The position numbers and the translations under genes were made by a program. Below, one piece after another: positions 14,496-56,714 of a stretch of 64,000 nucleotides of DNA. Under the pieces are notes generated by a model. That model did not search any database. It was not told where the DNA came from and saw nothing but the letters and a program-made list of their open reading frames with translations. The stretch lies in the NCBI GenBank assembly GCA_034423015.1, contig DAOUJG010000063.1, forward strand, positions 112,865 through 176,864. The letters run 5' to 3'. This stretch comes from Dehalococcoidia bacterium (GTDB taxonomy: Bacteria > Chloroflexota > Dehalococcoidia > Lucifugimonadales > JAGWBF01). Each line of letters opens with the position of its first letter. Position 1 is the stretch's first letter.

Positions 14496-15455
14496 CTAGA
14501 CTCCGGACTTTCGATGCAAAGCCTTCGCAGGGACCACCTGGCCGGTGACCTTGATGGCGCCCCCGGTGGGCACGAACCCGGAGAAGAGCTCGGGATGCAG
14601 TATCTCGGCCATGATCTCCAGGCCGTCGATGAGCCGCGGCCCTGACCTGCTGAAGTAGGCGCTGGCATCCACCACGAACACTCTGGATTGCTCCACCGCG
14701 GGGAGAGAGCTCCAGCCCTCCCGCTCGGTGAGCAGGGACACCTCCTGCAGCGCACGCTTGGCGTCGAAGCCGCAGGGAGTGACCAGTATCACCTCGGGAC
14801 GGGCCTCGAGGACCCGTTCCCACTCGATGCGAAACGACGGAGTGTGCTTGTCGCCCAGGACGTCCTCGCCCCCGGACATCTCCACCATCTCGGGCACCCA
14901 GTGCCCGGCCGCCAGCACCGGGTCCATCCACTCGAGGCACGCCACCCGGGGCCTCGTGTCCGCCAGGGCCGCCCTTGCCTCGACCGCCTCCACCCTGCGG
15001 CTCAGGGAGCCGGCGAACCGTTCCGCCTCGTCCCGGGCCCCCGTGGCGTCGCCCACCTTCAACACGTCCCCTATCACGTCGCCCACCGAGCTGGGGTCCA
15101 GGGACAGTATCTCCGGCTTCCTGGCCAGGGTCTCAGTTGCGTCGGCAACCTGCCGCGCGGTTATCGCTCACTCTCCGCATAGCTCCTGGGTGAGGAGCAG
15201 GTCGGGTTCCAGCTTCTCCAGAAGCTCCACGTCGATGTCGTAGATGCCCTTCCCCTCGGTGAGCCGCTCCTCGATGATCCGGTGTATATCGCCGCTGGAG
15301 TAGTCGCCGTCCTGGAAGATGCTGTGCACGATCCAGGGCAGCTTCCGGGCCTCGGGCGGGTAGTCGCACTCGTGGCTCACACCGAGCAGATGGTCGCCCA
15401 GACCCAGGGAGTAGACGATCTCCGTGGCGCTGGGCAGGAAGGAGCAGATGCGCAT
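14496..15455 (-). CDS. BtuF-like (cobalamin-binding-type) protein without signal peptide, 319 aa, in-frame UGA at codon 96 (candidate selenocysteine, CxxU)
   Basis: MRICSFLPSATEI...HECDYP...TQELCGE[TGA]AIT...LEW...PCGF...FSRSGPRL; ORFs 15168-15455 and 14496-15086 share one frame; real stop is TAG. Confidence 0.85.
15134..15152 (-). promoter_or_regulatory. Candidate bacterial SECIS hairpin (BtuF-like gene)
   Basis: CA(G)GUUGC-CGAC-GCAAC-UG at +16 to +34 after the UGA; loop G at +25. Confidence 0.6.
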
Positions 15456-19208: not shown

Positions 19209-20960
19209 CTATAACAAGGGGCCGCCGCGCCGCGACCGCCTGAGCAGGTCCGTGGCTTCCACGTCCACCGCCAGCCCGTCGACGACCACCGCATAGTCCC
19301 GCCGGGCGCCCTCCACCGTCACCTTTTCGTTCAGCACGTCGTCGAGCACCAGGGCCGGGTCCCGCTCCAGGGGGTCTCCGAAGCCTCCGCCGCCGCCGGA
19401 GACGATGGTGACCACGTCCGAGGCGTCCACGGGGATGAACGCCCCCTCCCTGGGCAGCTCCTGGGACTCGGACCCGTCGAGGTTGCGCACGATGCGCGTG
19501 AGCGTGCCGTCGCTGGCCCCCAGAAGGCCGGGCCCGGGGACCTTGTGCCGGTTGGAGTGGGTCCCCACGTAGGTGTCCACCAGCATCCGGTAGTCCTTCC
19601 GAATCCCCACACCGCCCCTGAACCGCCCGGCCCCCGCCGAGTCGGGTATGTACTCCAGGCGGTCGGCCATCATGGGGAACTCCAGCTCCATGGCCTCTAT
19701 GGGCAGGTTGGACGCAGTGTGCACACCCTCTATGCCGTCCTTGACGGGCCTGGCCCCACCGCCGCCGGCCAGCGTCTCGTAGTAGATGAAGGTGGGCGGC
19801 CCCTGGCTGCTGAAGCCCATTCCGTGAACGCCGTGACTGCCGGCCTCCAGGTTGGAGTCGGTGGCCGCCCTGTCGCTGGAACCGCCGAGGGCGGCGAAGA
19901 GCAGGTCCGGAAGCTGGGAGCACACCTCGAACCGCGCCCCCACCGGGGAGGGGGGCCTCGGATTGAGGATGGACCCCTCGGGGATGATCATCTCGATGGG
20001 CCTCCAGAACCCGTCGTTGCCCAGGGCGCTGGGGTCCAGCAGGGAGCGCAGCACCCAATAGGCGCAGGCGGCCGTCCCCGAGTAGGGGTTGTTGAGGCCC
20101 CACCTGGTGGGCCCGCCGGTGCCGGTGTAGTCCAGGGTGATGGTGGGCTGGGGTTCGTGCTTTACCGTGACCTTCACCCTCATGGGAATGGGCTCGTCGC
20201 TGTCCAGGTCGTCATCCAGGTAGTCCACGGCCTCGTAGACGCCCTCCCGCAACCGCCGGATACCCTCGCGCACCTTGGTCTCGGAGACCCGGAGCAGCTC
20301 GTCCATGCCCGAGCGCAGCACGTCGATGCCGTACCGCCGGGCCAGCTCCTGCATCCGGCGAACGCCCACCTGGACCGAGCCCACCTGGGCACGAATGTCC
20401 CCATCCCGGCCGTCGGGGTCCCGCACGTTGAGCAGGACCACCTCCAGCACCTCCCGTTGGAGCTCTCCGGCCCTGTACATGCGGATGGGCGGGTACCGGA
20501 TGGCCTCCTGGTATATCTCGGTGGCGTCGCCCAAGGCGCACTGGCCCGGAGCCTTGCCTCCCACGTCGGGCCAGTGGCCGGTGTTTCCCACGAAGCCCAA
20601 GAGCTCGCCGCCGTGGAACACGGGACCCACGAAGGTCACGTCGGCCAGGTGCGATGGGCCGCCGCTGTAGGGGTCGTTGACCATGAACACGTCGCCTTCC
20701 CGGATGGACTCCCTGGGGAACCGCTCCAGGATGGCGGACCCGGTGAACATGAAGGAGCTCATGTGTACGGGCTGGCTGATGTCCCCGATGCAGACGATGC
20801 GACCGTCGGCGTCCAGTATGACGCTGGAGCAGTCCTGCCGCTCCTTGATGTTGGTGGAGTACGCGGACTTTATCAGCGCCGCCAGGATCTCGTCGGCGAT
20901 GGATACCAGGGCGTTGCCCAGGACCTCGGTGGTCACGGGGTTCAGTCTAGCGCCGGCCAT
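19209..20960 (-). CDS. Hydantoinase B/5-oxoprolinase beta-subunit family protein
   Basis: AYSTNIKERQDCS, NDPYSGGPSHLAD, HWPDVGG, GGGGFGDPLER; start ATG 20960. Confidence 0.92.
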   Translation of the reverse strand: MAGARLNPVTTEVLGNALVSIADEILAALIKSAYSTNIKERQDCSSVILDADGRIVCIGDISQPVHMSSFMFTGSAILERFPRESIREGDVFMVNDPYSGGPSHLADVTFVGPVFHGGELLGFVGNTGHWPDVGGKAPGQCALGDATEIYQEAIRYPPIRMYRAGELQREVLEVVLLNVRDPDGRDGDIRAQVGSVQVGVRRMQELARRYGIDVLRSGMDELLRVSETKVREGIRRLREGVYEAVDYLDDDLDSDEPIPMRVKVTVKHEPQPTITLDYTGTGGPTRWGLNNPYSGTAACAYWVLRSLLDPSALGNDGFWRPIEMIIPEGSILNPRPPSPVGARFEVCSQLPDLLFAALGGSSDRAATDSNLEAGSHGVHGMGFSSQGPPTFIYYETLAGGGGARPVKDGIEGVHTASNLPIEAMELEFPMMADRLEYIPDSAGAGRFRGGVGIRKDYRMLVDTYVGTHSNRHKVPGPGLLGASDGTLTRIVRNLDGSESQELPREGAFIPVDASDVVTIVSGGGGGFGDPLERDPALVLDDVLNEKVTVEGARRDYAVVVDGLAVDVEATDLLRRSRRGGPLL

Positions 20961-21027: not shown

Positions 21028-22482
21028 CTACGGGCGGCTGATCTCGTGCCCGCCCCGGGCGTAGGAGGCGGTGTTGGGGTCGCCCGCCAGGAACTCGCCG
21101 CGGCCCTTGGTGCCCACGACCTCGTCGTTCTCAATGACCACGTGGCCCCGGGACATGGTCAGGTCGGGCATGCCCAGCAGCTTGAAGCCGTCGAAGGCCG
21201 AGTGGTCGGTGTTGCCGTGCTGGCCGTCCACCACGTGCACCCTGGCCGGGTCCCAGATCACCAGGTCGGCGTCGGACCCCGGGTTGAGGCAGCCCTTCTT
21301 GGGATAGAGACCGAAGAGCTTGGCGGGGTTCTCGCAGAACACCTGCACCAACCTGGGCAGCGTGATGCGGCCCCTGTTCACCCCGTAGCTCCAGACCACG
21401 GGCACCATGAACTCGATGGTGTTCAGGCCGTAGCGGCCCTCGAAGATGTTCTCCCCCGTGGCCCCCGCGGGCGTGTCCTTCAGGGTGGCGTCCATGCCGC
21501 CGGTCAGCTTCTGGCGCTTGTTGGTGCCGCCGGAATCGCTGGCGATGGTGTCGATGGTGCCGTCGGCCAGGGCGGCCCACAGGGCCTCGCAGTCATCCGC
21601 CTCACGCAGGGGCGGGCCTACCTTGCCTATGGGCCCCTTGGTCAGCACCTCGTCGTTGGTCAGGGTCAGGTAGTGGGGGCAGGTCTCGGCGAACATTTTG
21701 AGGCCCTCACCCTTGTACCGGCGCACCACGGCCATGGCCTCTTTGGTGCTGAGGTGCACCGGGTAGAGGGGGCAGTCCAGCACCTGGGAGAACACGGCCG
21801 ACCGGTTCACTCCCTCGGCCTCCAGTATGTTGGGCTGGGAGCGGAGGAAGTAGGGGGGCGAGGTGTTCCCCTCGGCGGTGTACTGGTCTATCAGGAAGTC
21901 GATGCATGGCCCGTTCTCGGCGTGGACCATGGCCATGCCCCCGTCCTTGGAGGCCAGGTCCATGATGCGGATCATGTTGTCCTCGGGGATCTCCATGCCC
22001 CGGCGCCGGTAGGCCAGGAACATCTTGAAGGAGATGACGCCCATGCGGATGATCTCCCCCACGGACTTGTTGAAGCTCTCCCCGTCCGCCGGCGTGTAGG
22101 TGCCGTGGATGGCGTAGTCCAGGTAGGAGAGCTTCTCGGCCTCGTCGATGAACTGCTTGATGACGTCCGACGTGTAGCCTTCGAACCCCCAGGACCTGAC
22201 GTTGCCCACGAAGGCGATGACGGTGGTTATGCCCCCGTAGGCGGCGGTGATGGAGTAGTCGTCCATCTTGTCGTTGTACACCGGATGGCAATGGGAGTCG
22301 ATGGCCCCGGGGAGCACGTACTTGCCGGTGGCGTCGATTACCCTGCCGGCCTCCCGCGACGGGTCGTCGGTGAGCTCCACGACCTTGCCTTCGCTGATGA
22401 CCACGTCCCGGCGGGTGATGTCCTGGCCGGTGACCAGCATCCCTCCCCTGACTATCACGTCGGCCCTGGTACTGGTTGTCAT
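21028..22482 (-). CDS. Dihydropyrimidinase/hydantoinase-like cyclic amidohydrolase
   Basis: PGAIDSHCH, FKMF (carbamylated Lys), VHAENG, VHLS, ETCPHYL, ASD, NPAKLFG. Confidence 0.9.
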   Translation of the reverse strand: MTTSTRADVIVRGGMLVTGQDITRRDVVISEGKVVELTDDPSREAGRVIDATGKYVLPGAIDSHCHPVYNDKMDDYSITAAYGGITTVIAFVGNVRSWGFEGYTSDVIKQFIDEAEKLSYLDYAIHGTYTPADGESFNKSVGEIIRMGVISFKMFLAYRRRGMEIPEDNMIRIMDLASKDGGMAMVHAENGPCIDFLIDQYTAEGNTSPPYFLRSQPNILEAEGVNRSAVFSQVLDCPLYPVHLSTKEAMAVVRRYKGEGLKMFAETCPHYLTLTNDEVLTKGPIGKVGPPLREADDCEALWAALADGTIDTIASDSGGTNKRQKLTGGMDATLKDTPAGATGENIFEGRYGLNTIEFMVPVVWSYGVNRGRITLPRLVQVFCENPAKLFGLYPKKGCLNPGSDADLVIWDPARVHVVDGQHGNTDHSAFDGFKLLGMPDLTMSRGHVVIENDEVVGTKGRGEFLAGDPNTASYARGGHEISRP

Positions 22483-22604: not shown

Positions 22605-23906
22605 CTAGTCAGCCACCGCCACCTGCCCGCCTATTGTCGGCCGCGGCTCCCGCATGTAGTAGACCAGCGCCGCGGAGATGGTGAGCAGGACAAGGTTCGA
22701 CCATATGGCGATGTCGTAGGTCCCCCGCCAGTCGTAGAGGACCCCGCCGAGGTAGGCGCCCAGACCGGAGCCCAGGGGCATGACGCCGAACATGGTGCCG
22801 TATATGGTGGCCAGGTTGGACACGCCGAACCTATCCGAAGCGTAGGCCGCGGTGATCCCGATGACGGCGTTCCACGACGAGCCCACCAGCATGATGCCGA
22901 TGAGGAGCGCGGCCAGCCCCAGGGACGGGATTCCCATGAAGGAGATGCCCATGGACAGGAGGACTATTACGAACCCAAGGGCCCGGAGCTCGTAGGAGAA
23001 GGCGAGAAGGAACTTGCGGCTCCTGGAGCGGTCGGACAGGTGTCCCAGTATGAGGGTCCCGACTATGGCCCAGAGTCCGATGAGGCTGAAGCCGGCCGCT
23101 CCCACCATGGGATGGTAGCCGAGGTCCTGGGCGTAGGAGACGAAGTGAGCATTCACGAAGCTCATGGAGTACCCTCAGACGAAGTAGCCGAAGGTCAGCC
23201 TCCAGAAGAACCCCGTGCGCAGCGCCTCGCCGAAGGTGGCGTCAGGCCCAGCTTCCACCGCAGGGTTGGCGGGCTCGGAGGACGGGGAAGGCTCCGCCCG
23301 GCGGGGCGCAAGCCCCACGTCGCTGGGACGGTTCTTGACGAACAGCAGCCCCACCGGCAGGACCACGGCCAGCAGGAGCACCCCCAGGAAGAGGTACGCC
23401 TCCCTCCAGTCGAAAAGCACGACGAAGCTGGAAGCGGCGGGCACCAGTACGATGGCGCCGATGGAGCCGCCGCCGGTGATGAGACCCAAAGTAAGGCCCC
23501 GGTTGGTATGGAACCAGGCGCTTACTATCTTGGTGAGAGTCGATCCTGTCCCCAGGGTGAGGCCGACGCTCATCACGGCGAAGATGACGTACAGTTGGGC
23601 CAGGTTGCTTGTGAGGGGCAGGAGCAGGAGCATGATGCCCATCAGCACCACGCCCGACAGGGCCACCACCTTTGGGCTGTACCGGTCGGCCAGGAACCCG
23701 GCCACGGGACGCAGCAGGCCCGACAACATGAAGGTGGTCCCGAAGGCCAGGGAGAGGGTCGCCCTGCTCCACTCGAACTCCTCGGTCATGGGTTTCAGGA
23801 ACACGCCGAAGGAGAACTGCGTGCCGGTCATGCCCATGGCTATCAGCGCGCCGCCGATGACGACGAACCAGCCGTAGAAGATGTTGGTGCGCCCTACAAT
23901 CCTCAT
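22605..23906 (-). CDS. MFS transporter, 433 aa, in-frame UGA at codon 244 (candidate selenocysteine)
   Basis: N-half ...FFWRLTFGYFV[TGA]GYSMSFVNAHF... continues in frame into the C-half; the two ORFs are the two 6-TM halves of one MFS; real stop is TAG. Confidence 0.85.
23146..23164 (-). promoter_or_regulatory. Candidate bacterial SECIS hairpin (MFS gene)
   Basis: UGAGCUU-CGUG-AA(U)GCUCA at +11 to +29 after the UGA; GU in the apical loop. Confidence 0.55.
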
Positions 23907-25731: not shown

Positions 25732-27483
25732 TCAGACGTTCCCCGTGCTCCCGGCCAGCCTCTTCCTCAGCCGGGCCGTGGCCCGCTCGTCCACAGCGCC
25801 GTCTTTCACGACCACCCCGTACACCTCTTTAGCCGCTTCCGGGGATATCCGGTCGTCCACCAGGTCCGCCAGGACCAGGGACGGCTCCCGGAGCAGGGGG
25901 TCGCCGAAGCCGCCGCCGCCGGCTGTCCGCACGCTGACCACGTCCCCCGCCTGCAGGTGAATGCCCGCGGTCACGGCCCTCACGGACCGCTCCCCGGGCG
26001 TATCCGGGTTTATGACGAAGGCGCTGGGGGAGCCGCTCAGGCCTCCCTCCAGGCCCTCCGCCGGATGGGTCTCCCGGTCGGCGGTGGTCGACAGGATGGT
26101 GTCCTCGGCCAGAACGCGGGTGTCCCGCCGGATGGGCATGCCCCCGCGGAAGCTGCCCGGGCCGCCGCCGTCCCGCAGGAGCTCGTACCGGAGCACCTGC
26201 AGCGGGTACGCCAGCTCCATGCTCTCCACCGGCAGGTTGGCGGAGCCCGAGGCGTGGATGCGGACGGCATCGGTGCCGTCCCGGGTGCGCCGGGCTCCCA
26301 GGGCTCCGGCGAAGGTCTCGTAGTCCACCCACGGCTGGTCGGAGCCAGGCAGCGTGCCCCCGTAGGTGCACAGGGAGTGGGGCCCCGAGGGAGCCAGGGA
26401 CTTCTCGGGCATCGCCTGGACCAGCGCGCCCACAACGACGTCGCCCAGGATGCCGCAGCTCGTCGCCCGGGCGCCCACCGCCGCGGGGGGCACCGGGTTC
26501 ACCAGGCACCCTTCGGGCGCGACGACGCGGACGGGCTTGTAGGTGCCCGAGTTGGGGGGCAGGTCAGGGTCCAGGAGCATCTTGAGGACGAAGTACACGA
26601 CGGACAGGGTGGCGACCATGGGGACGTTCTTGCCGCTGTCCATCTGGGGGTCCGTGCCGGTGAAATCGAACTCCACCACACCGTCCTTCACGGTGGCGGC
26701 GCACTCGATGCGCACCGGGGTGTCCTGAAAGCCATCGCTGTCCAGGTAGTCGACGAACCTGTAGGTGCCCTCCTTCAGCCTCCCGATGAGGCGGCGCATC
26801 CGCCTCTCGCTGTAGTCCAGGAAGTGCTCGACGCAATCCAGCATGGTGCCGGCGCCGTACCGCTCGCACACCTGGTGGACGCCCCGGACCCCAACGTGGA
26901 GGGCCGCCATCTGGGCCTGCAGGTCCCCCAGGCGCTCCTCGGGCGTGCGGCTGTTGGACATGATGATCTGGGTGACACCGTCGTCCTCTCCCAGCTCGGG
27001 GTACACCCGCACGGGAGGCAGGCGGATGCCCTCCTCGTATATGGTCTTGCACGCCGCCGACTCGCTGCCCGGCACCATGCCGCCCACGTCGGCGTGGTGG
27101 GCTATGTCGGCGACGAAGGCCACCAGGGAGTCCTCATAGAACACCGGGGAGACGGCGGTGATGTCGGGCAGGTGGGCGCCCCCGCCACGGTAGGGGTCGT
27201 TGGCCAGGAACATGTCGCCGGGTTTCAGTTTGTCCTTGGGAAACCTCTTCAGCACCTCGTCGATCAACCCCACCATGGAGCCCAGGTGCATGGGCACGAA
27301 GGGCGCCTGGGCGATGATCTGGCCCTCGGGCCCGAATATGCAGGTGGAGCAGTCTCTCCGCTCGCGGATGTTGGGAGAGTGGGACGCCGTGATCATGGCG
27401 AGCCCCAGCTCGTCGGACACGGACAGGAGCAGGTTCGCGACCACCTCGGCCAGGATCGGGTCTACTTCCGTCTTGGTGCTCAA
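25732..27483 (-). CDS. Hydantoinase B/5-oxoprolinase beta-subunit family protein
   Basis: SHSPNIRERRDCS, PMHLGSM, NDPYRGGGAHLPD, HHADVGG. Confidence 0.93.
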   Translation of the reverse strand: MSTKTEVDPILAEVVANLLLSVSDELGLAMITASHSPNIRERRDCSTCIFGPEGQIIAQAPFVPMHLGSMVGLIDEVLKRFPKDKLKPGDMFLANDPYRGGGAHLPDITAVSPVFYEDSLVAFVADIAHHADVGGMVPGSESAACKTIYEEGIRLPPVRVYPELGEDDGVTQIIMSNSRTPEERLGDLQAQMAALHVGVRGVHQVCERYGAGTMLDCVEHFLDYSERRMRRLIGRLKEGTYRFVDYLDSDGFQDTPVRIECAATVKDGVVEFDFTGTDPQMDSGKNVPMVATLSVVYFVLKMLLDPDLPPNSGTYKPVRVVAPEGCLVNPVPPAAVGARATSCGILGDVVVGALVQAMPEKSLAPSGPHSLCTYGGTLPGSDQPWVDYETFAGALGARRTRDGTDAVRIHASGSANLPVESMELAYPLQVLRYELLRDGGGPGSFRGGMPIRRDTRVLAEDTILSTTADRETHPAEGLEGGLSGSPSAFVINPDTPGERSVRAVTAGIHLQAGDVVSVRTAGGGGFGDPLLREPSLVLADLVDDRISPEAAKEVYGVVVKDGAVDERATARLRKRLAGSTGNV

Positions 27484-27492
27484 CCGTTCCCC

Positions 27493-29580
27493 CTACGTAG
27501 ATATTAGCAGGCTCAGGTACTGGTCCACGTTGGCCTCCTGGCCGGGCAGCAGGACGGTGGTCGAGTCCATCTGCTCGATCACCGCCGGACCGGGAACTCT
27601 GTCCCCCGGCTCCAGGCTGGGCCTCCAGTACACCGGGCACTCGCCGAACCCGTGCTCCTGGCCAAGATAAACTTCCCTGGTGGAGCTGAGAGCCCGGGCG
27701 TGGTCGCCGTCCCCCGGGGAGCGGGCTTTTAGCTCCGGCTGGGGCCCCGGGGCGCTCACCTGGAGGCGAAAGTGGACCATCTCCACCGGAGTGCCCCTGC
27801 GGGCGTAGCCGTAACCTTCTTCGTAGGTGGCATGGAAGTCTTCCAGGAGCCGCTCCACGGCGCCGGCCGGGCTCCCGTCGGGGTGCGCGACGATGGGTAA
27901 CTGGTGGCCCTGTCCCGCGTACCGCATCTCCACCACCCGGGTACTTCCCGCCGAGGACCGGTCGATGCCCTCGCTCCTGAGCCACCTGTACGCGCGACTC
28001 TCCAGGCCCGCAAAGACGCGTTCCACAGTACGATGGGCTACCGTGCGATGGGAGGTGGATGCGTGGTCCCGCCCGTTCCCGTCCAGGGCCAGCACGTGGG
28101 ACTGGCTGAACTCGGCGCGGACATCGGCCATCAGCAGCCCCAGGGCGCAAAGCACCCCCGGGGCCTCGGGGACCAGCACAGTGCCGATGTCCATCTCGGC
28201 GGCAAGCTGGACCGCGTGCATAGGGCCGGCCCCTCCGAAGGCCACCAGCGTAAAGGTACGCGGGTCGTGGCCCCTCTCCACCGAGACCACGCGGACGGCC
28301 CGGGCGAGGTTGCTGGTCATCACCCCGTTGGCGCCGTAGAGGGCCCTCTCGATGGAGAACCCCATGGGGCCGCAAACGTCCGTCTCCAGGGCGCGGCGGG
28401 CCGGGGCCTCCTGGAGGGCGACCCGGTCCCCGAGCTCCCGGCTGGGGCTGAGGCGGCGGGCCACCAGGTTGGCGTCGGTTACCGTGGCCCGCGTGCCGCC
28501 CAGTCCATAGCAGGCCGGGCCCGGCCGGGCCCCGGCGCTCTGGGGGCCGACCCGCAGGTAGCCGCCCTCGTCCACCCACAGGATGCTGCCGCCCCCGGCG
28601 CCGATGGAGTGGACGTCCAGGGACGGCTCCAGCACCGGCCACCCCCCTATCTGACGCTCCCGGGAGACGAGGGGGGTGCCGCCGTGGACCAGACAGACGT
28701 CGGTGCTGGTGCCTCCCATGTCCAGGGTTATCAGGTCCCGGTACCCGCTGGCCCCGGCGACCGCGGCGGCCCCCACGACCCCGGCGCTGGGCCCGGACAT
28801 CAGGGTCACGGTGGGGCGTTCTTTGGCGGTGCGCAGCGCCACGGTGCCGCCGTAGGAGCTTGAGATGCGCGGCGGCGAGGACACGCCCAGGGCCTTCACC
28901 CGCCGTCCCAGACGGTCCAGGTACCGGCGCATGACGGGCAGGAGGGCGGCGTTGAGAGTGGTGGTGGAGAAACGCTCGAACTCGCGAAACTCCCTCAAGA
29001 CCTCCGACGAGAGGGAGACCAGGGCCCGGGGAAACGAGCGCTTGAGCAGCGTGCGGGCCCTGCGCTCATGGACGGAGTTGCCGTAGGCGTTGAGGAAACA
29101 GATGGCCACGGCCGGAACCCCTGCATCCCTCAGCTTCTCCGCCGCACGGGTCACCGCCTCTTCGTCCAGGGGGGTGAGCACCCTCCGGTGGACGTCCACG
29201 CGCTCCGGGACCTCCAGGCGGAGGCGCCTGGGGGCCAGGGGCCGGGGCTTTTCGATGTCCAGGTTGTACAGGTGGGGACGCCTCTGCCGGGCCAGCTCCA
29301 GGACGTCCCGGAACCCCTCGGTGGTGATCATGCCTATCTCGGGGAGGCGGTCCTGGAGGACGGCGTTGATAGCCACGGTGGTGCCGTGGGCCAGGGAGTC
29401 GAGCTCCGCCGGGGTGATCCCCTGCTCCGGCAGGACCTCTCCCAGCCCCTCTACCGTGGCCGCCGAAGGCTCGTGGGGGGTGGAGGGGTACTTGTGCAGG
29501 TGCAGGGTCTGGGTCTCGGTGTCGAAGATGACGAAGTCGGTGAAGGTGCCGCCGGTGTCTACGCCTGCGAAATAGGTCAT
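27493..29580 (-). CDS. Hydantoinase A/5-oxoprolinase alpha (ATPase) subunit
   Basis: DTGGTFTD, HGTT, SGPSAG, DMGGTSTD, AFGGAGPMHA. Confidence 0.95.
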   Translation of the reverse strand: MTYFAGVDTGGTFTDFVIFDTETQTLHLHKYPSTPHEPSAATVEGLGEVLPEQGITPAELDSLAHGTTVAINAVLQDRLPEIGMITTEGFRDVLELARQRRPHLYNLDIEKPRPLAPRRLRLEVPERVDVHRRVLTPLDEEAVTRAAEKLRDAGVPAVAICFLNAYGNSVHERRARTLLKRSFPRALVSLSSEVLREFREFERFSTTTLNAALLPVMRRYLDRLGRRVKALGVSSPPRISSSYGGTVALRTAKERPTVTLMSGPSAGVVGAAAVAGASGYRDLITLDMGGTSTDVCLVHGGTPLVSRERQIGGWPVLEPSLDVHSIGAGGGSILWVDEGGYLRVGPQSAGARPGPACYGLGGTRATVTDANLVARRLSPSRELGDRVALQEAPARRALETDVCGPMGFSIERALYGANGVMTSNLARAVRVVSVERGHDPRTFTLVAFGGAGPMHAVQLAAEMDIGTVLVPEAPGVLCALGLLMADVRAEFSQSHVLALDGNGRDHASTSHRTVAHRTVERVFAGLESRAYRWLRSEGIDRSSAGSTRVVEMRYAGQGHQLPIVAHPDGSPAGAVERLLEDFHATYEEGYGYARRGTPVEMVHFRLQVSAPGPQPELKARSPGDGDHARALSSTREVYLGQEHGFGECPVYWRPSLEPGDRVPGPAVIEQMDSTTVLLPGQEANVDQYLSLLIST

Positions 29581-35516: not shown

Positions 35517-36269
35517 CTACTGGGCGGTGTAGCCGCCGTCCACGGCCAGCTCCGCGCCCGTGATGTAGGAGGCCTCGTCCGACGCCAGGAACAGGACGGC
35601 GTTGGCGACCTCCTCCTGGCGGCCCCGCCTGCGCATGGGGGTACCGTCGATCACCAGCCGCTCCTCGTCGTCGGAGTAGGCGGGTTGGTTCATCATGGGG
35701 GGCATGAACCCGGGGTGGACTGAGTTGACCCGGACGCCCTCCTGGGCGTGGCGGACGGCCATGGCCTTGGTGAACAGCCTGACCGCGCCCTTGGAGGCGT
35801 GGTAGGCGCCGTGCCCGAAGGGGTTGCCTACCAGCCCCATGATGGACGATATGTTGACGATGGAGCCACCGCCCGCCTCGATCATGTGGGGGACCGCGTG
35901 AATGGTGCCCAGGTACACGCCCTTGGCGTTGATGTCCATGATGCGGTCCCACCCGTCGACACTGGAGGAGTCGGGGTAGAGGCGACTGCTGATGCCGGCG
36001 TTGTTCACCAGGATGTCCAGCTTGCCGAACCTCTCCACCGTCTTCGACACCACCGTCTTCCAGTCCTGTTCGCTGGTCACGTCCATGGGCAGGAACATCG
36101 CTTCGCCCCCGGCCTCGGCGATCTCCGCCTCCACCTGCCGGCCCTCGGCCTCCAGGACGTCGCCGATCACCACCCTGGCCCCTTCCCGCACGAACATCCT
36201 GGCTTCCACCGCGCCCATGCCGTGGGCCCCTCCGGTGATTATGGCAACCTTGCCCTCGAGTCTCATCAC
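35517..36269 (-). CDS. SDR family oxidoreductase
   Basis: TGGAHGMG, NNAGI, YHASK. Confidence 0.95.
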   Translation of the reverse strand: MMRLEGKVAIITGGAHGMGAVEARMFVREGARVVIGDVLEAEGRQVEAEIAEAGGEAMFLPMDVTSEQDWKTVVSKTVERFGKLDILVNNAGISSRLYPDSSSVDGWDRIMDINAKGVYLGTIHAVPHMIEAGGGSIVNISSIMGLVGNPFGHGAYHASKGAVRLFTKAMAVRHAQEGVRVNSVHPGFMPPMMNQPAYSDDEERLVIDGTPMRRRGRQEEVANAVLFLASDEASYITGAELAVDGGYTAQ

Positions 36270-37576
36270 ACGTTACCGTCCTCGTTGGTAGCTGCCCTCG
36301 ACGGGGGCGATACAGTAGCCATTATAAACGCGGTGGCAAGATACACGCCCATCAGCATCCACCAGGCCTGGTCGTAGCTGCCCAGGACGTCGCGCATGTA
36401 ACCCGCCGCCGGGGCGCCCACGCCCGAGGCTATCAGGGTGACCGGAAACACGATCCCCCTGATGGCCCCCAGGAACGCCCTACCGTAGTAGGCCGCGAAT
36501 ATGTAGGACTGAACCACCATCCCGACCCCCACGGCCATGCCGAAGGTGATGACCGAGGCGAAGAGGGCGGCCTCGTTGAGGGCATAGATCATCAGGAGCA
36601 CGGCCAGCGCGAAGCCCAGGTAGGACGCCACCGCAACCCACCGTATGGGAAACCTGTCCACGACCCACCCGGTGGCCAGGGCCATGATGGCGGCCCCCGC
36701 GGCGTCGGCGGAGAAGGCGTAGGACACGACCAGAGGATCGAAGCCCCGCTCCTCGACGAAATAGGGTATGCGGTGCAGGCTGGCGGCGCCCATCCCCAGG
36801 CCGGCCAACGCGAAGACGAGCATCAGCTTCCACATGGTGGTGGTGCGCAGGGTCTCGCCCACGGTCCAGACCGCCTCGGCGCCGGGGTCCCCGGTCATGG
36901 TGGAGCCAGATGGCACGGCTTCGGGAGAGGGGTCTCCGTCCACCGCCAGCCCGAAGTCCTCGGGCTGGCGTCTGAGGAACAGGGCGCCCAGGGGTATGGA
37001 CACCCCCATGAAGACGATGGCCAGTATGACCCACGCCTCCCGCCACTGCACCTGGTCGATGAGCTGCTGGGTGATGGGGAGAAAGGCCACGCCGCCCAGG
37101 CCCAACCCGGTGCTGGCCAGGGCCAGGGCCCGGCCCCTGGCCCGCCGGAACCACTTGGCAACCGGCACCGACGTCACGAGGCTGTTGGGCGCGGCCAAGC
37201 CGCACACCCCCAGGATGCCAAACAGAAGGACCACGTGCCAGCCGGCCTCCGACCTCGAGACGCCAAGAAGACAGACGCCGATTATGGTCGCTGCAACGAC
37301 CACGAGGACCCGGGGCCCGTACCGGTCCAGTATCCGTCCAATCAGAAAGCTGGACAGCCCCGCCGACAGCCCCCGGGTCGTCTGCGCCCACCCGAACTGG
37401 CCACGGCTCATGCCCAGGGCCGTCCCCATGGGCAGGACGAACAGGCCGAAGTTGAGGGTGCCCGTGGCCATGGTGGAGAAGTTGATGGCGAAGGTGCTGG
37501 CGACGATCACCCAGCCGTAGAAGAGGCGTTTCTGGACAAGACCCACCAACCCGCCGGTGGAGGTGGTGGCGGCCAC
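36266..37576 (-). CDS. MFS transporter
   Basis: About 12 TM helices; GRILDRYGPR motif A. Confidence 0.92.
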   Translation of the reverse strand: MAATTSTGGLVGLVQKRLFYGWVIVASTFAINFSTMATGTLNFGLFVLPMGTALGMSRGQFGWAQTTRGLSAGLSSFLIGRILDRYGPRVLVVVAATIIGVCLLGVSRSEAGWHVVLLFGILGVCGLAAPNSLVTSVPVAKWFRRARGRALALASTGLGLGGVAFLPITQQLIDQVQWREAWVILAIVFMGVSIPLGALFLRRQPEDFGLAVDGDPSPEAVPSGSTMTGDPGAEAVWTVGETLRTTTMWKLMLVFALAGLGMGAASLHRIPYFVEERGFDPLVVSYAFSADAAGAAIMALATGWVVDRFPIRWVAVASYLGFALAVLLMIYALNEAALFASVITFGMAVGVGMVVQSYIFAAYYGRAFLGAIRGIVFPVTLIASGVGAPAAGYMRDVLGSYDQAWWMLMGVYLATAFIMATVSPPSRAATNEDGNV

Positions 37577-44733: not shown

Positions 44734-44791
44734 TCGCTAGGTATCCCGGCGAGTCCGACCCCCGCATCCTTCGATGCGACAGGAGACGGGA

Positions 44792-46546
44792 ATGCAGCAG
44801 ACCACGGACCCGATCAGCCGCGAGGTCATCAAGAACGCCCTGCTAAGCGCCGCCGACACCATGGCCCTGACGGTGGTCCGCACCGCCCGATCGGCGGTGA
44901 TCAAGCACGCGATGGACTTCTCCACGGCCCTCTTCACCGCCGACGGTCAGCAGGTGGCCCAGGGCCTGACCATCCCCGTCCACCTGGGAGCGATGGCCCC
45001 GGCGCTGCACGGGGTCATGAACGCCTTCGGCGACGACGTGCAGCCGGGCGACGTGTTCGCCAACAACGACCCTTACGAGGGGGGCAGCCACCTCCCCGAC
45101 ATCTTCTTGTTCAAGCCCATCTTCTCCAGGGACACGTTGGTGGGCTGGAGCTGCTGCATCGGGCACCAGACGGACATCGGCGGCAGGGTGCCCGCGGGGA
45201 ACGCCACCGACAGCACGGAGATATACCAGGAGGGCATCCAGATCCCGCCCATCAAGCTCATCGAGGGCGGTGTCCTGAACCGGGCCGTCTGGCGCATCCT
45301 GGAGAAGAACGTGCGGGTGTCCGACAAGGTGATGGGGGACATCCAGGCCCTGCTGGCCGCCACCCGCTTCGGCGAACGGGACCTGCTGAAGCTGGTGGAC
45401 GACTACGGCGTGGAGGAGATGAAGCTCTACATGGCGGACATCCTGGACACGACGGAGCGCCTTGCCAGGGCGGACATCGCCAAGCTGCCCAAGGGCGAGT
45501 GGGAGTTCACCGACTACCTGGACAACGACGGCCTGGACCTGCGGCCCATCGCCATACACGCCCGGCTGAAGATAGAGGACGACCAGGTGTTCGTGGACTT
45601 CGACGGCACCTCCCCCCAGGCCAGGGGCTCCATCAACCCCAACTTCGCCTTCACCAAGTCGATGGTGTACGCGGCGGTGAAGTGCGTGATAGACAACGAC
45701 ATAGAGTCCAACAGCGGCTTCTTCAGGGCCTTCCACATAACGGCCCCCGAAGGATGCTTCGTGAACCCCCAGCACCCCGCGCCGGTGGCCGCCAGGGGCA
45801 TGTCGGGCCTGCGGGTTTCCCAGGTCATCTTCGGCGCCCTGGCGCAGGCGCTGCCCGAAAAGGTGCCCGGCGTGTGGGGCGGCGGCGAGGTGGGCCTGAG
45901 CTTCGGCGGGTACGACCAGGACCGCAGGGGCTGGGTGTACCTGGAGTTCAACAACGACGGGCCAAGGGGGGGCGGGCCCTTCCAGGACGGGCCCGACGGC
46001 CTGCCCAGCCCGGTGTCCAACACCGCCAACACGCCGATAGAGAGCGTGGAGGCCGACCACCCCCTCATGGTGGAACGGTTCGAGCTGGTCCCGGACTCGG
46101 GCGGCCCTGGCAAGTACAGAGGGGGCCTGGCCTACACCCGGAAGTTCCGCATCCTGGCCGACGAGGCCACCTTCCACCTGCGCTCGGACCGGCACGACTT
46201 CCCCACCTGGGGCGTGCAGGGGGGCAAGCCCGGCACCCCCATCGAGAACTACATCCTGAGGGACAACGAAGGGCCGGACACGAACCCGGACCAGGTGGCG
46301 CCCAAGCTCCTGACGACCATGAAGAAGGACGACGTGTACCACCTGATCCAGGCCGGCGCGGGCGGATACGGAGACCCCCTGGAACGGGACCTGGACTCCA
46401 TCCTGGACGACCTCCAGCAGGAGAAGCTGACCGTCGACCACGTGCGGCGGGAGTACGGCGTGGTGGTCGACCCCGCCACGCTGCAGATCGACCTGAAGGC
46501 AACCGAGGAGCTGCGGGCGTCCATGAGGGCGGACCGAGCCGGGTAG
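44792..46546 (+). CDS. Hydantoinase B/oxoprolinase beta family protein (tandem copy 1)
   Basis: ARSAVIKHAMDFS, NDPYEGGSHLPD, HQTDIGG; AGGAG before ATG 44792. Confidence 0.92.
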   Translation: MQQTTDPISREVIKNALLSAADTMALTVVRTARSAVIKHAMDFSTALFTADGQQVAQGLTIPVHLGAMAPALHGVMNAFGDDVQPGDVFANNDPYEGGSHLPDIFLFKPIFSRDTLVGWSCCIGHQTDIGGRVPAGNATDSTEIYQEGIQIPPIKLIEGGVLNRAVWRILEKNVRVSDKVMGDIQALLAATRFGERDLLKLVDDYGVEEMKLYMADILDTTERLARADIAKLPKGEWEFTDYLDNDGLDLRPIAIHARLKIEDDQVFVDFDGTSPQARGSINPNFAFTKSMVYAAVKCVIDNDIESNSGFFRAFHITAPEGCFVNPQHPAPVAARGMSGLRVSQVIFGALAQALPEKVPGVWGGGEVGLSFGGYDQDRRGWVYLEFNNDGPRGGGPFQDGPDGLPSPVSNTANTPIESVEADHPLMVERFELVPDSGGPGKYRGGLAYTRKFRILADEATFHLRSDRHDFPTWGVQGGKPGTPIENYILRDNEGPDTNPDQVAPKLLTTMKKDDVYHLIQAGAGGYGDPLERDLDSILDDLQQEKLTVDHVRREYGVVVDPATLQIDLKATEELRASMRADRAG

Positions 46547-46601: not shown

Positions 46602-48365
46602 ATGCAACAGGCCACCGATCCCGTCACCCGGGAGATCATCAAGAACGCGCTGATGAGCAGCGCCGACACCATGGCGCTCACGGTGGTCCGCACCGCGCGC
46701 TCCGCCGTCATCAAGCACTCCATGGACTTCTCCACGGCCCTCTTCTCCGCCGACGGACAGCAGGTGGCCCAGGGCCTCACCCTCCCCTCCCACCTGGGCT
46801 CCATGGCCCCGGCCCTGGAGGGCATCATGAACGCCTTCGGGGACGACGTCCACCCGGGGGACATCTTCGCCAACAACGACCCCTACGAGGGCGGCAGCCA
46901 CCTGCCGGACATATTCCTCTTCAAGCCCATCTTCGCCTACGACACCCTGGTGGGCTGGAGCTGCTGCATCGGCCACCAGACGGACATAGGCGGCCGCATT
47001 CCCGGGGGCAACGCCTGCGACAACACGGAGATATACCAGGAGGGGCTACTGCTGCCTCCCCTGAAGCTGTACGACAGGGGCGTACTGAACCAAGCCGTCT
47101 GGCGCATCCTGGGAAAGAACGTCAGGGTGCCCGAGAAGGTGCTCGGGGACGTTCAGGCCCTCCTGGCCGCCGTCAGGTTCGGCGAACGGGACCTCCTCCG
47201 CCTGGTCGACGACTACGGCGTCGAGGAGATGAAGAGCTACATGACCGACATCCTGGACACCACGGAGCGCATGACCCGGGCGGAGATACAGGGTCTGCCC
47301 GACGGCGAGTGGGAGTTCACCGACTACATCGACAACGACGGCATCGACGAACAGCCCATCGCCATCCACGCCAAGGTGAAGATCCAGGGCGATACCGTGT
47401 ACGTGGACTTCAAGGGCACCTCGCCCCAGGCCAGGGGCTCCATCAACCCCAACTTCGCGTACACCAAGTCCCAGGTGTACGCGGTCATGAAGCACCTCAT
47501 CGACGAGTCCATCCAGTCCAACAGCGGCTTCTTCAGGGCCTTCGAGATCACCGCGCCCGAGGGCTGCTTCGTCAACCCACAGCACCCCGCGCCCGTGGCT
47601 GCCCGCGGCCTCTCGGGGTTCCGCATCACGGCGACCCTCTTCGGCGCCATGGCCCAGGCCCTTCCGGGCAGGGTGCCGGGGGCCTTCGGCGGAGGCGAGG
47701 TGGGCCTCACATTCGGAGGCTACGACCGCAACCGCAAGGCCTGGGTCTACCTGGAGTTCAACAACGACGGGCCCAGGGGCGGCGGACCCTACTTCGACGG
47801 CGCGGACGGCCTGGCCGCCCCCGGGCGGAACACCGCCAACACCCCCATCGAGAGCATCGAGGCCGACCAGCCCCTGATGGTCGAGCGTTTCGCCCTTGTC
47901 CCGGACACGGGCGGCCCCGGGAAGTACCGGGGCGGCCTGGCCATAACGCGGGAGTTCAGGGTCCTGGCCGACGAGGCCACCTTCCAGCTACGCTCCGACC
48001 GCCACGACTTCCCGCCCTGGGGCGTAGAGGGCGGCAAGCACGGCACACCGACCCGCAGCTACATCTCTAAGGAAAGCGAAGGGCCGGACGCGGACTCGGG
48101 AGAGATCCCCAGTAAGCACCTGACGACGTTGAAGAGCGGCGACCTATACCGGCTCATCCAGTCCAGCGCCGGCGGGTATGGCGATCCCCTGGACCGGGAC
48201 GTGGACTCAGTGCTGGACGACGTGGAGCAGGAGAAGATGACCCAGGGCCACGCCCGCGCCGAGTACGGGGTCGTCGTCGACCCCGACACCCTGGCGCTGG
48301 ACCCGAGGGCCACCGCGGAACTCCGGGACAGAATGCGCCAAGCGCGAAACGAGAAGCAGGGATAG
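46602..48365 (+). CDS. Hydantoinase B/oxoprolinase beta family protein (tandem copy 2)
   Basis: Collinear close paralog of 44792-46546. Confidence 0.92.
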   Translation: MQQATDPVTREIIKNALMSSADTMALTVVRTARSAVIKHSMDFSTALFSADGQQVAQGLTLPSHLGSMAPALEGIMNAFGDDVHPGDIFANNDPYEGGSHLPDIFLFKPIFAYDTLVGWSCCIGHQTDIGGRIPGGNACDNTEIYQEGLLLPPLKLYDRGVLNQAVWRILGKNVRVPEKVLGDVQALLAAVRFGERDLLRLVDDYGVEEMKSYMTDILDTTERMTRAEIQGLPDGEWEFTDYIDNDGIDEQPIAIHAKVKIQGDTVYVDFKGTSPQARGSINPNFAYTKSQVYAVMKHLIDESIQSNSGFFRAFEITAPEGCFVNPQHPAPVAARGLSGFRITATLFGAMAQALPGRVPGAFGGGEVGLTFGGYDRNRKAWVYLEFNNDGPRGGGPYFDGADGLAAPGRNTANTPIESIEADQPLMVERFALVPDTGGPGKYRGGLAITREFRVLADEATFQLRSDRHDFPPWGVEGGKHGTPTRSYISKESEGPDADSGEIPSKHLTTLKSGDLYRLIQSSAGGYGDPLDRDVDSVLDDVEQEKMTQGHARAEYGVVVDPDTLALDPRATAELRDRMRQARNEKQG

Positions 48366-54411: not shown

Positions 54412-55557
54412 CTATTCGAACAGGGCCGCGATGCGCTCTCCGACGATCGTGTCCTCGCCCTCGCTGAGACCGAAGACGTGGATGGCGATGAAGTCCTCCC
54501 CGTCGCGGACCCTGGTCCATATGGGCGGGTCTCCCGCCTTCAGACGGTCCACCACGTCGGTAAGGCTCATGCCCGTGGCCTCCTGGTCGACCCTCAGGAC
54601 CACGCCGTAGGGCATGTGGCCGACCACGTTGTCGATGCGCTGGACCGTAATGCCCGGTACGCCCGCCAGGGGGGCCATGATGGCCAGGCACTGCCCCTCG
54701 GCCTGGGCCAGCCTCTCCTCGTGGTTCATGGTCATCCAGCGTCTCACGGCGGCCACCGCCCCGATCATCTCCTGGCGGTCCACCTTGTGGGGCCTGCCCA
54801 CGCCCCGTATCCGGCGTCCCTCGTAGCTGGCGAAGGACTGGAGGCCCAGCTTCCGTATCATGTCCTTGGTGCCCAGGGCCAGCCCCGTGGACTGGGGCGC
54901 GCCCATGTACTTGGCCGCGATGCACTGGAAGTCTGCCCCCATCCGCACGTGCTTGCCGAAGACGTCCAGGGGATATATCTGGCCCGCCGAGTCCACCAGG
55001 ACGGGCACGTCGTGGGCGTGGGCGATCTCGATGATGTCCTCCAGGGGCAGGGCCTTGGGGTCGGGCTCCTGCTCCACGGCGTAGAAGTGCACCGCGGCAG
55101 TCTTGGGGCCGATGGCCTTCTCCAGGTCCTCCCGGGTGGTGCCGTCCTTGTCTCCGAACTCCACCAGCTTGGCCCCGGCGAGCTGCAGGCAGCGGTCGTA
55201 CCAGTAGCGCTGCCTGGTCTGGATCAGGATCTCGTCCTTCATGCCCGTGGTGTCGGGCAGCTGCTGTATCTTGTCGTCGTCGTCCCCGGCCATCACGGCC
55301 GCCGTGGCCAGGGTCAGCGCGGAGCCGGCCCCCGAGGTGATGTAGGCCGCGGGCACGTCGGCCATCTTGGCGATGGCCTCACCGGCCTTCTCCTGCAGGT
55401 GCATCAGGGGGATGTAGGGACCGTCGGCCCGCTCCATCGCCTCCTTGACCTCGGGCACCGGCGTCGACCCGCCCAGCATCGTCACGCTTCCGATGGCGTT
55501 GATAACCGGGGTCGCCCCCAGCTCCTTGTAGATGTCTCCCCAATCTCCGGCTGCCAT
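54412..55557 (-). CDS. SelA-like PLP enzyme (DgaE/D-glucosaminate-6-phosphate ammonia-lyase-like)
   Basis: INAIGSVT.LGGS, ITSGA, VDSA, AAKYMGAP, RPHKVD; 381 aa without the SelA N-terminal domain. Confidence 0.85.
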   Translation of the reverse strand: MAAGDWGDIYKELGATPVINAIGSVTMLGGSTPVPEVKEAMERADGPYIPLMHLQEKAGEAIAKMADVPAAYITSGAGSALTLATAAVMAGDDDDKIQQLPDTTGMKDEILIQTRQRYWYDRCLQLAGAKLVEFGDKDGTTREDLEKAIGPKTAAVHFYAVEQEPDPKALPLEDIIEIAHAHDVPVLVDSAGQIYPLDVFGKHVRMGADFQCIAAKYMGAPQSTGLALGTKDMIRKLGLQSFASYEGRRIRGVGRPHKVDRQEMIGAVAAVRRWMTMNHEERLAQAEGQCLAIMAPLAGVPGITVQRIDNVVGHMPYGVVLRVDQEATGMSLTDVVDRLKAGDPPIWTRVRDGEDFIAIHVFGLSEGEDTIVGERIAALFE

Positions 55558-55639: not shown

Positions 55640-56545
55640 CTAGTCGTCGGCCTGCAGGACGGCTGCGGAGCCGATGCCCAACGCGGCCAAGGTCCGTACC
55701 ACCTCGGCCCTGCCCTCGGGGCTGATGGGCCGCCCGGGCGGGCGCGGGGCCCCGCAGTCGATGCCCAGCCGCTCGCTGATAGCCGCCTTGACCGTAGCGT
55801 GCAGGCCGAACCTGTCCACCAGAAGGTTGAGGTTGGTCGCCTTGTCCTGGGCCTCCTCGGCGCGCCCCAGGTCGCCGGCGACATAGGCGTCCCAAAGCTC
55901 CACCCACAGCTCGGGGGCTATGTTGGGCGGCCCGTCTATGCAACCGACGGCGCCGATGGTGAGGGCGGGCAGCATGAGGTGGGAGTGGCCCACGAAGCAG
56001 CTCAGCCCCATCTTCGCGAAGGCGCGGATGTTGGAGATGTCCATGGGCGAGTGCTTGAGCCCCGTTAGCTGAGGGACCCGGTCCTGGATCTTCCGCATGA
56101 GGTCCGGCTTGACCTCGACGCCGGTGGCCTTGGGTATGTTGTACACGAAGAAGGGCAGGTCCGCGGCCGCGGCTACGACCCGGTAGTGCTCCACCATCTC
56201 GTCGTCGCTGCGACCGTAGAAGTAGGGCGGCACGCAGCATATGGCGTCCACCCCTGCCCTGGCCGCGTGCTCGGCCATCCTGGCGGACCGCAGCGTCGTC
56301 GGCGACCCCACGTGCATGATGTTCTTTATCCTGCCCCTGGCCTGGTCCGCGGCTATCTCGGCGATGCGCATGTTCTCCGCGTCGTCCAGGAGAACACTCT
56401 CGCCGGTGCCTCCGGCCACCCAGAAGCCGTGGGCGCCCTGCTGGATGTTGAACTCCATCACTTCCCTGAAGGCTCCCTCGTTCAGCCCTCCGTCCTGCGT
56501 CATGGGGGTCAGGAAGGCGGGGTACACGCCACGGAACTCGGACAT
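55640..56545 (-). CDS. DHDPS/N-acetylneuraminate lyase family aldolase
   Basis: GGTGE, YNIP, catalytic LKHS; start ATG 56545. Confidence 0.92.
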   Translation of the reverse strand: MSEFRGVYPAFLTPMTQDGGLNEGAFREVMEFNIQQGAHGFWVAGGTGESVLLDDAENMRIAEIAADQARGRIKNIMHVGSPTTLRSARMAEHAARAGVDAICCVPPYFYGRSDDEMVEHYRVVAAAADLPFFVYNIPKATGVEVKPDLMRKIQDRVPQLTGLKHSPMDISNIRAFAKMGLSCFVGHSHLMLPALTIGAVGCIDGPPNIAPELWVELWDAYVAGDLGRAEEAQDKATNLNLLVDRFGLHATVKAAISERLGIDCGAPRPPGRPISPEGRAEVVRTLAALGIGSAAVLQADD

Positions 56546-56714
56546 CGACTCACCTCCCGGAATCGTACTTGGCCGCCCGTGAAACGCCGCAGGCACAGAC
56601 GGTTTACAGCGTTCGTATTATACACGCGACCCGCCCGGTGGCCTAGACCGTCCGAGGCTTGCGTGCTAAACTCCCCCAAAAGCACACCCCAAAGGTGCAA
56701 AAAAGGAGGAAGAT

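Follow-up and report, generated by a model that had tools for sequence, protein, structure and literature searches.

A conserved in-frame UGA in a Dehalococcoidia major facilitator superfamily gene as a probable selenocysteine codon

Introduction

A 2026 inventory of prokaryotic selenoproteins lists several transport proteins that contain selenocysteine (Sec), namely SaoP, SaoB/X, YeeE/YedE, SO_0444, a MerT-like protein and a cation ATPase, and no member of the major facilitator superfamily (MFS) (PMC13188914). Most of them have been connected with the handling of metals or metalloids and carry Cys-Sec motifs (UxC, CU, GUxSG), and none is a proton-coupled secondary carrier of the MFS fold. Here we describe a gene in a 64,000-nucleotide (nt) stretch of a Dehalococcoidia bacterium genome (assembly GCA_034423015.1, contig DAOUJG010000063.1, positions 112,865 to 176,864; hereafter the window), in which the reading frame for an MFS transporter is interrupted by a single in-frame UGA. 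Like the inventoried proteins, its product, UGA-MFS, would be a membrane transport protein with a predicted Sec in place of Cys, specified by a UGA followed by a bacterial selenocysteine insertion sequence (SECIS). Unlike most of them, it would have a Sec that stands alone, and its genomic contexts are those of organic-acid and amide catabolism.

The closest transporter of known structure is SfMCT from Syntrophobacter fumaroxidans, an L-lactate/H+ carrier of the MFS, which does not contain Sec. Its proton site is composed of His250 at the periplasmic end of transmembrane helix (TM) 7, Asp257, Asp378 and Tyr383 (PMC6573034). Bacterial SECIS elements have been modelled with an apical loop of 3-9 nt, in which the first or second base is a G and the base after it a G or U, a stem of 4-16 base pairs (bp), a distance of 16-37 nt from UGA to loop, and an energy of -7.5 kcal/mol or lower (PMC13188914). 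We compared the locus with both. Very probably the locus is a single gene in which UGA-244 is recoded to Sec and whose 12-helix product belongs to the SfMCT/oxalate-formate-antiporter/SLC16-like branch of the MFS.

The interrupted reading frame

The gene lies on the minus strand, with its ATG at 23906 and a TAG stop at 22607..22605. Its parts are as follows.

22605..23906, minus strand: complete read-through gene for a 433-residue MFS transporter with the proposed Sec at residue 244 (from frame, Pfam and NCBIfam)
23178..23906, minus strand: codons 1-243, comprising the N-terminal six-helix bundle, the central loop and the first half of TM7 (a separate 243-aa 'MFS transporter' in databases)
23175..23177, minus strand: in-frame UGA, proposed Sec codon 244, aligned with the Cys of the TM7 CG motif (from orthologue conservation)
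23146..23164, minus strand: SECIS-like hairpin, nt 14-32 counting the U of UGA as 1, with 7 bp and a bulged U27 (from synonymous constraint)
23154-23157, minus strand: apical loop C21 G22 U23 G24 of this hairpin (from the base-pair model)
22608..23174, minus strand: codons 245-433, from the second half of TM7 to TM12, with H254, D261, D392, Y397 and R308 (from alignment to SfMCT)

A single TGA at 23177..23175 interrupts the 433-codon frame. The upstream part ends in FFWRLTFGYFV, and the TGA is followed in the same frame by GGG TAC TCC ATG AGC TTC GTG AAT GCT CAC (GYSMSFVNAHF...). The two listed open reading frames (ORFs), 23175..23906 and 22605..23165, therefore share one frame, and the gap between them consists of the stop and 9 nt. 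Pfam MFS_1 (PF07690) matches residues 21-346 of the read-through translation across the UGA junction (143.3 bits against a cutoff of 33.4, E 1.2e-41). An earlier sequence-only reading of this DNA had proposed that one gene was split into two same-frame ORFs and that read-through yields a complete 433-aa MFS protein ending at a TAG. Frame and domain match bear out the first proposal and the sequence itself the second.

Conservation of the UGA

One genome per GTDB species was scanned for the gene and 80 loci were fetched, 79 of them titled Dehalococcoidia, SAR202 or Chloroflexota. The 80th, titled 'Thaumarchaeota archaeon' (L067), holds a Dehalococcoidia-type gene whose sequence diverges right after GYTMSFVN (L067:2064 onward); this contig is probably chimeric or mis-binned. 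TGA occupies the position of codon 244 in 80/80 loci, in 79 by pattern match (followed in frame by GY[ST]MSFVNAH) and in L071 by inspection. Downstream of it the frame stays open for 186-205 codons in 77/80 loci. The TGA is also kept in distant subfamilies (L083, 45% identical; L084/L085, 44%; L086, 35%), together with the 9 nt to the Met codon, the open frame beyond it and the hairpin. Its presence in all 80 species loci and in three divergent subfamilies answers a doubt raised by the sequence-only reading, that the UGA might be private to this assembly. In subfamily L083 the TGA is followed by TGT (L083:3724-3729), giving a U-C dyad instead of U-G with the hairpin kept.

Protein collections hold this family in fragments. 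The best 120 matches of the read-through query among 5.8 billion protein clusters were all N-halves of 238-251 aa, which were 59-100% identical to the query and aligned with its N-terminal 56%. When 20 such entries were fetched, 17 ended in ...G[YF]FV and one in ...GYFA at the same column, and two had frameshifted tails. The tails of these two, P0049 (...SSGGSPSDISSEGTR) and P0118 (...SPSGTSFEGTQ), begin just before the Sec position and possibly reflect assembly indels or real pseudogenes. No full-length translation of the read-through gene was found in the protein collections searched. A HMMER scan without a profile, run on 1.84 billion sequences that represent ~15 billion proteins, was queried with the N-half rather than the read-through protein and returned no full-length homologue more than about 41% identical. 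Within the UGA-MFS clade, across the loci and the representatives searched, neither Cys nor any other sense codon was found at position 244.

Both sides of the UGA appear to be under selection as protein. The segment LTFGYFV-U-GYSMSFVNAHF varies hardly or not at all among 77 species, and this holds also for the seven residues 5' of the UGA, where there is no RNA constraint. Among the codons between UGA and Met, GGN and TAY vary at third positions only and WCN adds a Ser/Thr change; all three evolve as translated codons. The orthologues end in TAG (52), TGA (20) or TAA (7) and the internal stop is always TGA, so the internal stop does not simply follow stop-codon usage. A screen of 39 gene-like ORFs in the window gave 11 with a terminal TGA, including the N-half of the MFS gene. 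Since TGA is the ordinary stop of the ten others, the code is not reassigned.

A SECIS-like hairpin under synonymous constraint

The sequence-only reading had pointed to a hairpin at +11 to +29 with GU in its loop, formed in part by atypical T-ending codons. The hairpin is present, with pairs U14-A32, G15-C31, A16-U30, G17-C29, C18-G28, U19-A26 and U20-A25 enclosing the loop C21-G22-U23-G24. For 77 complete orthologues aligned by codon, codon entropy was taken at conserved, degenerate amino-acid columns. The four 7-codon windows of lowest entropy in the gene start 1-4 codons past the UGA, and the minimum falls at codons +3 to +9. Within the hairpin Ser is AGC in 72/77 orthologues, Phe is TTC and Val is GTG in 77/77, and Ala is GCT in 75/77, while each flanking column of Val, Gly, Ala or Leu shows three to six different codons. 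The T-ending codons are indeed atypical, as GCT is found at other conserved Ala columns in only 5-7 of ~76 sequences and is otherwise a rare Ala codon in these orthologues, which have high GC at third codon positions. The bulged base (AAT/AAC) and the base just past the stem (CAC/CAT) vary freely, which fits the hairpin model.

Changes within the stem are few. Pair 16-30 is seen as AU, GC, GU, UA and UG, and pair 18-28 as CG and UG. In L011 and L049 the Ser codon AGC is replaced by UCG together with GCU by GCA/GCG and AAU by AAC, and the stem is re-formed in a shifted register. The hairpin is thus preserved at positions where codons could change silently, and one of its pairs shows compensatory or wobble changes. 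The synonymous-site constraint is the stronger argument for the hairpin. With its CGUG loop, 7 bp stem with one bulge, G-then-U and 17 nt from UGA to loop, the hairpin fits the bacterial SECIS model in loop, stem and spacing. A long-range pairing of UGAGG with CCUCGG ~50 nt downstream was also considered and was rejected because the downstream codons vary freely.

Cysteine at the aligned column

Cys is found at the UGA column in 35/117 full-length cluster representatives, in the motif [FY][FYM][VIA]-C-G-[FY]-[TS], and the remainder have assorted hydrophobic residues there. In alignment A4, Cys is invariant at this column by construction. The Cys group is the nearest to the UGA clade, the two have Gly245, Tyr305 and Arg308 in common, and some of the Cys-form homologues come from Dehalococcoidia. 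The Cys motif that the sequence-only reading had placed at the start of the C-terminal bundle was recovered in the closest full-length homologues. The combined Cys/Sec group lacks the Arg or Lys of TM8 and has T, S or V in its place (Thr284 in the window protein); R or K is found in 74/82 other representatives. The window also encodes an intact SfMCT-like MFS paralogue (36266..37576, minus strand; 436 aa, 29% identical) that has Ala at the Sec column and belongs to the non-Cys group.

Fold and predicted sites of the transporter

The best NCBIfam matches of the read-through protein are below cutoff (SfMCT NF049980, 158 vs 320 bits; OFA family TIGR00890, 117 vs 375 bits). Its best PDB sequence match is SfMCT (6G9X, 6HCL; E 2.6e-25), followed by MCT1/2 and OxlT as the next solved relatives. 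An AlphaFold model of the Cys homologue P0134 (mean predicted local confidence, pLDDT, 91.2) has the 12-TM fold and SfMCT as its best structural match, with a TM-score of 0.77-0.85. The window protein thus shares fold and MFS branch with SfMCT, and OxlT and the SLC16 MCTs are its next neighbours. In the P0134 model TM7 is a helix from 228 to 257 and the Cys is residue 240, position 13 of 30.

The proton-site residues H250, D257, D378 and Y383 of SfMCT are kept in the window protein as H254, D261, D392 and Y397. This conservation makes it likely that UGA-MFS is a proton-coupled transporter. Conversely, Arg280 and Asn276, which bind the carboxylate in TM8 of SfMCT, are replaced by Thr284 and Ala280. 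The Cys/Sec subfamily has its own TM9 Arg308 and Tyr305 in place of the TM8 Arg/Lys of SfMCT and MCT1, suggesting that its substrate and binding site differ from those of the lactate carriers.

Sec244 would lie 10 residues before His254, near mid-membrane. SfMCT Cys239 is one residue out of register with it in an ungapped alignment. Across 77 species UGA-MFS proteins contain 0-1 other Cys, none of them conserved; without a conserved partner Cys, Sec244 is not part of a CxxU-type redox pair. The sequence-only reading had placed Sec in a helix that may line the transport pathway. The mid-TM7 position is upheld by the model of the Cys homologue, and the cavity-facing orientation is a prediction.

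A second Sec/Cys family in the same genomes

The window was screened for in-frame TGA codons with coding signal on both sides. One other convincing case was found.

14496..15455, minus strand: comparator, a BtuF-like periplasmic-binding-protein selenoprotein with the motif C-G-E-U (UGA at 15168-15170, strong SECIS hairpin)

This Peripla_BP_2/BtuF-like gene has a GAGGAGG ribosome-binding site and is split by gene callers into ORFs of 95 aa and 196 aa. Its SECIS is strong, about -12 kcal/mol, with GGU in the loop. Among 80 related loci (L088-L167) TGA is found in most Dehalococcoidia, in an Entotheonella and in some Planctomycetota, and CxxC elsewhere. Judged by these alignments, the BtuF-like family is a textbook Sec/Cys pair, and a family 'Cobalamin-binding protein BtuF, CxxU' is listed in the 2026 inventory (PMC13188914). 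Its SECIS resembles the MFS hairpin in having G22 and U23 in the apical loop and a stem that starts at nt 13-14, in the same genomes. It differs in energy (about -12 against -5.8 kcal/mol), and the BtuF-like protein, unlike UGA-MFS, is a binding protein that is soluble and has a CxxU motif of the redox type. The BtuF SECIS was considered as the basis of a covariance model, and the idea was dropped because its alignment is dominated by primary sequence and would offer no fair test of shared structure.

Fifteen assemblies are common to both locus lists, and 12/15 have the Sec form of BtuF together with UGA-MFS. The other three (BtuF-like loci L096, L107 and L120; MFS loci L013, L011 and L075) have a Cys-form BtuF-like protein and yet a TGA in the MFS gene, indicating that the two families switched between Sec and Cys independently. 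Cys forms of the BtuF-like protein occur inside Dehalococcoidia, whereas the UGA-MFS clade never has Cys. BSepDB, which covers species with a Sec pathway, assigns 46 selenoprotein genes to 'Dehalococcoidia bacterium 10f4566d-ab44-49ae-b774-fc9f760c6436' (PMC13326102). That isolate is the genome of locus L033, a carrier of UGA-MFS. This entry and the second selenoprotein gene of the window are indirect evidence that genomes with UGA-MFS encode the Sec machinery.

Weighing the alternatives

Several results count against decoding of the UGA as Sec. Covariation in the hairpin is thin, coming from a single base pair and a small number of lineages, because the hairpin hardly varies. The predicted energy, -5.8 kcal/mol for a 5-bp stem and -3.9 with the two inner A-U pairs, misses the -7.5 kcal/mol limit, and it does not differ significantly from that of shuffled sequence (z = 0.05 and -0.22). 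Energy alone therefore cannot support the hairpin, and it is conservation that sets it apart. No Rfam SECIS family matched, either at the gathering threshold over the window or at E up to 10 over 22950-23350. A canonical SECIS is also missing in about 12.6% of BSepDB entries (PMC13326102). ARAGORN found no tRNA-Sec in 0.83 Mb (the window and 0.77 Mb of other loci), and no selA, selB, selC or selD was seen in this sequence (SelA and SelB motif searches). A weak Pfam SelA match in the window (54412..55557, minus strand) is not a selenocysteine synthase and was assigned to a DgaE-family (SelA-related) ammonia lyase (TIGR01437, 172 bits). Finally, GAGG lies 7 nt upstream of the invariant AUG, so UGAGG could be a Shine-Dalgarno-like restart site.

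This last feature would suit a naturally split transporter, in which the UGA is a true stop, the C-half restarts at the AUG four codons downstream and two polypeptides assemble in the membrane; gene callers do predict two ORFs everywhere. We consider such an arrangement improbable. The break would fall in the middle of TM7 rather than in a loop (helix 228-257 in the P0134 model), so that neither fragment holds an intact helix. The 9 nt from stop to AUG never change length, vary only at third positions or conservatively (Ser/Thr, Tyr/Leu), and specify the G-[YF]-[ST] residues seen just after the Cys of full-length homologues. The GAGG arises automatically from UGA followed by GGN and is lost in L083 (UGAUGU), which keeps both UGA and hairpin. 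The AUG itself is a Met conserved throughout the family, Cys homologues included, and is sequestered in the conserved stem. Moreover, the stop is always TGA and is exactly aligned with the conserved Cys. Occasional termination and restart may occur as a side reaction.

Reading of the UGA as a standard amino acid (Trp, Cys, Gly or Arg), through a suppressor or near-cognate tRNA or a lineage-wide reassignment, has precedent in that UGA read-through without Sec is known in some bacteria, and it would accord with the Sec machinery not being directly seen in the 0.83 Mb. We regard it as very improbable. TGA terminates ten other ORFs of the window and 20/79 orthologues of the MFS gene itself, leaving no room for reassignment. 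A conserved hairpin with G and U in its loop at SECIS distance, combined with alignment to Cys, is a signature of Sec, and the same genomes hold a classical Sec/Cys family with SECIS. A lone in-frame stop in an otherwise intact gene does resemble a fresh nonsense mutation, which would fit a pseudogene, or else a mistake of sequencing or assembly that only this assembly has. The identical stop recurs in 80 species-level genomes, which were produced by many projects with different sequencing technologies, and other assemblies that encode the same protein have it too. Purifying selection acts on both halves, with protein identities of 56-94% to the N-half of the window. Conservation of the stop across the species loci excludes error or pseudogene with hardly any residual doubt. 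Clearly, the pattern of conservation favors Sec: on comparative grounds the conserved in-frame UGA almost certainly encodes selenocysteine.

Genomic context

Genes next to UGA-MFS differ among species and include luciferase-like monooxygenases, binding proteins, peptidases and other MFS genes. No gene neighbourhood conserved across species was found that reveals the MFS substrate. In subfamily L083 the gene is immediately followed by two genes of CoA-transferase family III. Next to the MFS gene in the window are hydantoinase A/B genes and a dihydropyrimidinase-like amidohydrolase gene, part of an unusual density of hydantoinase/oxoprolinase genes (one HyuA and four HyuB paralogues besides the amidohydrolase).

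19209-20960, 21028-22482, 25732-27483 and 27493-29580, minus strand; 44774-46546 and 46602-48365, plus strand: hydantoinase/oxoprolinase and amidohydrolase genes

This setting suggests cyclic-amide catabolism around the transporter. Elsewhere in the window a DHDPS-family aldolase-like gene (55640..56596, minus strand) adjoins the DgaE-family lyase gene.

Discussion

A mechanism may be proposed for UGA-MFS as a selenoprotein. SelB carrying Sec-tRNA(Sec) would bind the hairpin, whose stem starts 10 nt past the UGA and whose loop presents G22 and U23, and would deliver Sec when the ribosome reaches the UGA. The product would carry a single selenol about halfway along TM7, which is among the four helices that form the cavity; relative to His254 this selenol would lie ~10 residues toward the cytoplasm. 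The most likely role of Sec244 is substrate contact or gating in the cavity. More tentatively, and with the odds rather against it, the selenol might take a direct part in proton-coupled transport, either by forming short-lived Se-S, Se-Se or Se-metal bonds with the cargo or by serving as a gate that responds to redox state. On this view, the absence of reversion to Cys in the UGA-MFS clade suggests that sulfur is no adequate replacement. Another possibility is that the UGA-GGN...AUG arrangement makes output selenium-dependent, with the full-length carrier produced in the presence of Sec-tRNA and truncated products in its absence.

UGA-MFS would be a new selenoprotein family and the first of the major facilitator superfamily in the inventories checked. 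The literature search returned no paper combining selenoprotein, SECIS and MFS transporter, and NCBIfam release 20 has no matching selenoprotein model. No MFS family appears in the main text of the BSepDB paper (PMC13326102) or in the deep-Sep lists. The statement of the sequence-only reading that no MFS selenoprotein is known agrees with these sources and with the 2026 inventory (PMC13188914). The family is unusual in two respects: its Sec would stand alone within a membrane-spanning helix of a secondary carrier, and its SECIS is weaker than the published limit. The latter may be one reason why SECIS-based finders have not reported the family, as functional SECIS elements can fall below their energy threshold. 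Annotations everywhere present the gene as two 'MFS transporter' genes of half length, so that for these organisms both the number of transporters and the size of the selenoproteome are slightly wrong.

To our knowledge, the known bacterial selenoproteins are, with few exceptions, soluble redox enzymes that have a Sec-Cys motif. An isolated Sec halfway along a helix that forms the cavity of a secondary transporter would be a different use of selenium. The gene is kept in at least 80 species of marine Dehalococcoidia (SAR202-type), an abundant group that occurs in the open ocean, in sponges and in the subsurface. If the selenol does take a direct part in transport, UGA-MFS would be the first secondary active transporter with a selenium-dependent mechanism. 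The gene is a tractable case in which to study what selenium adds within a transport pathway.

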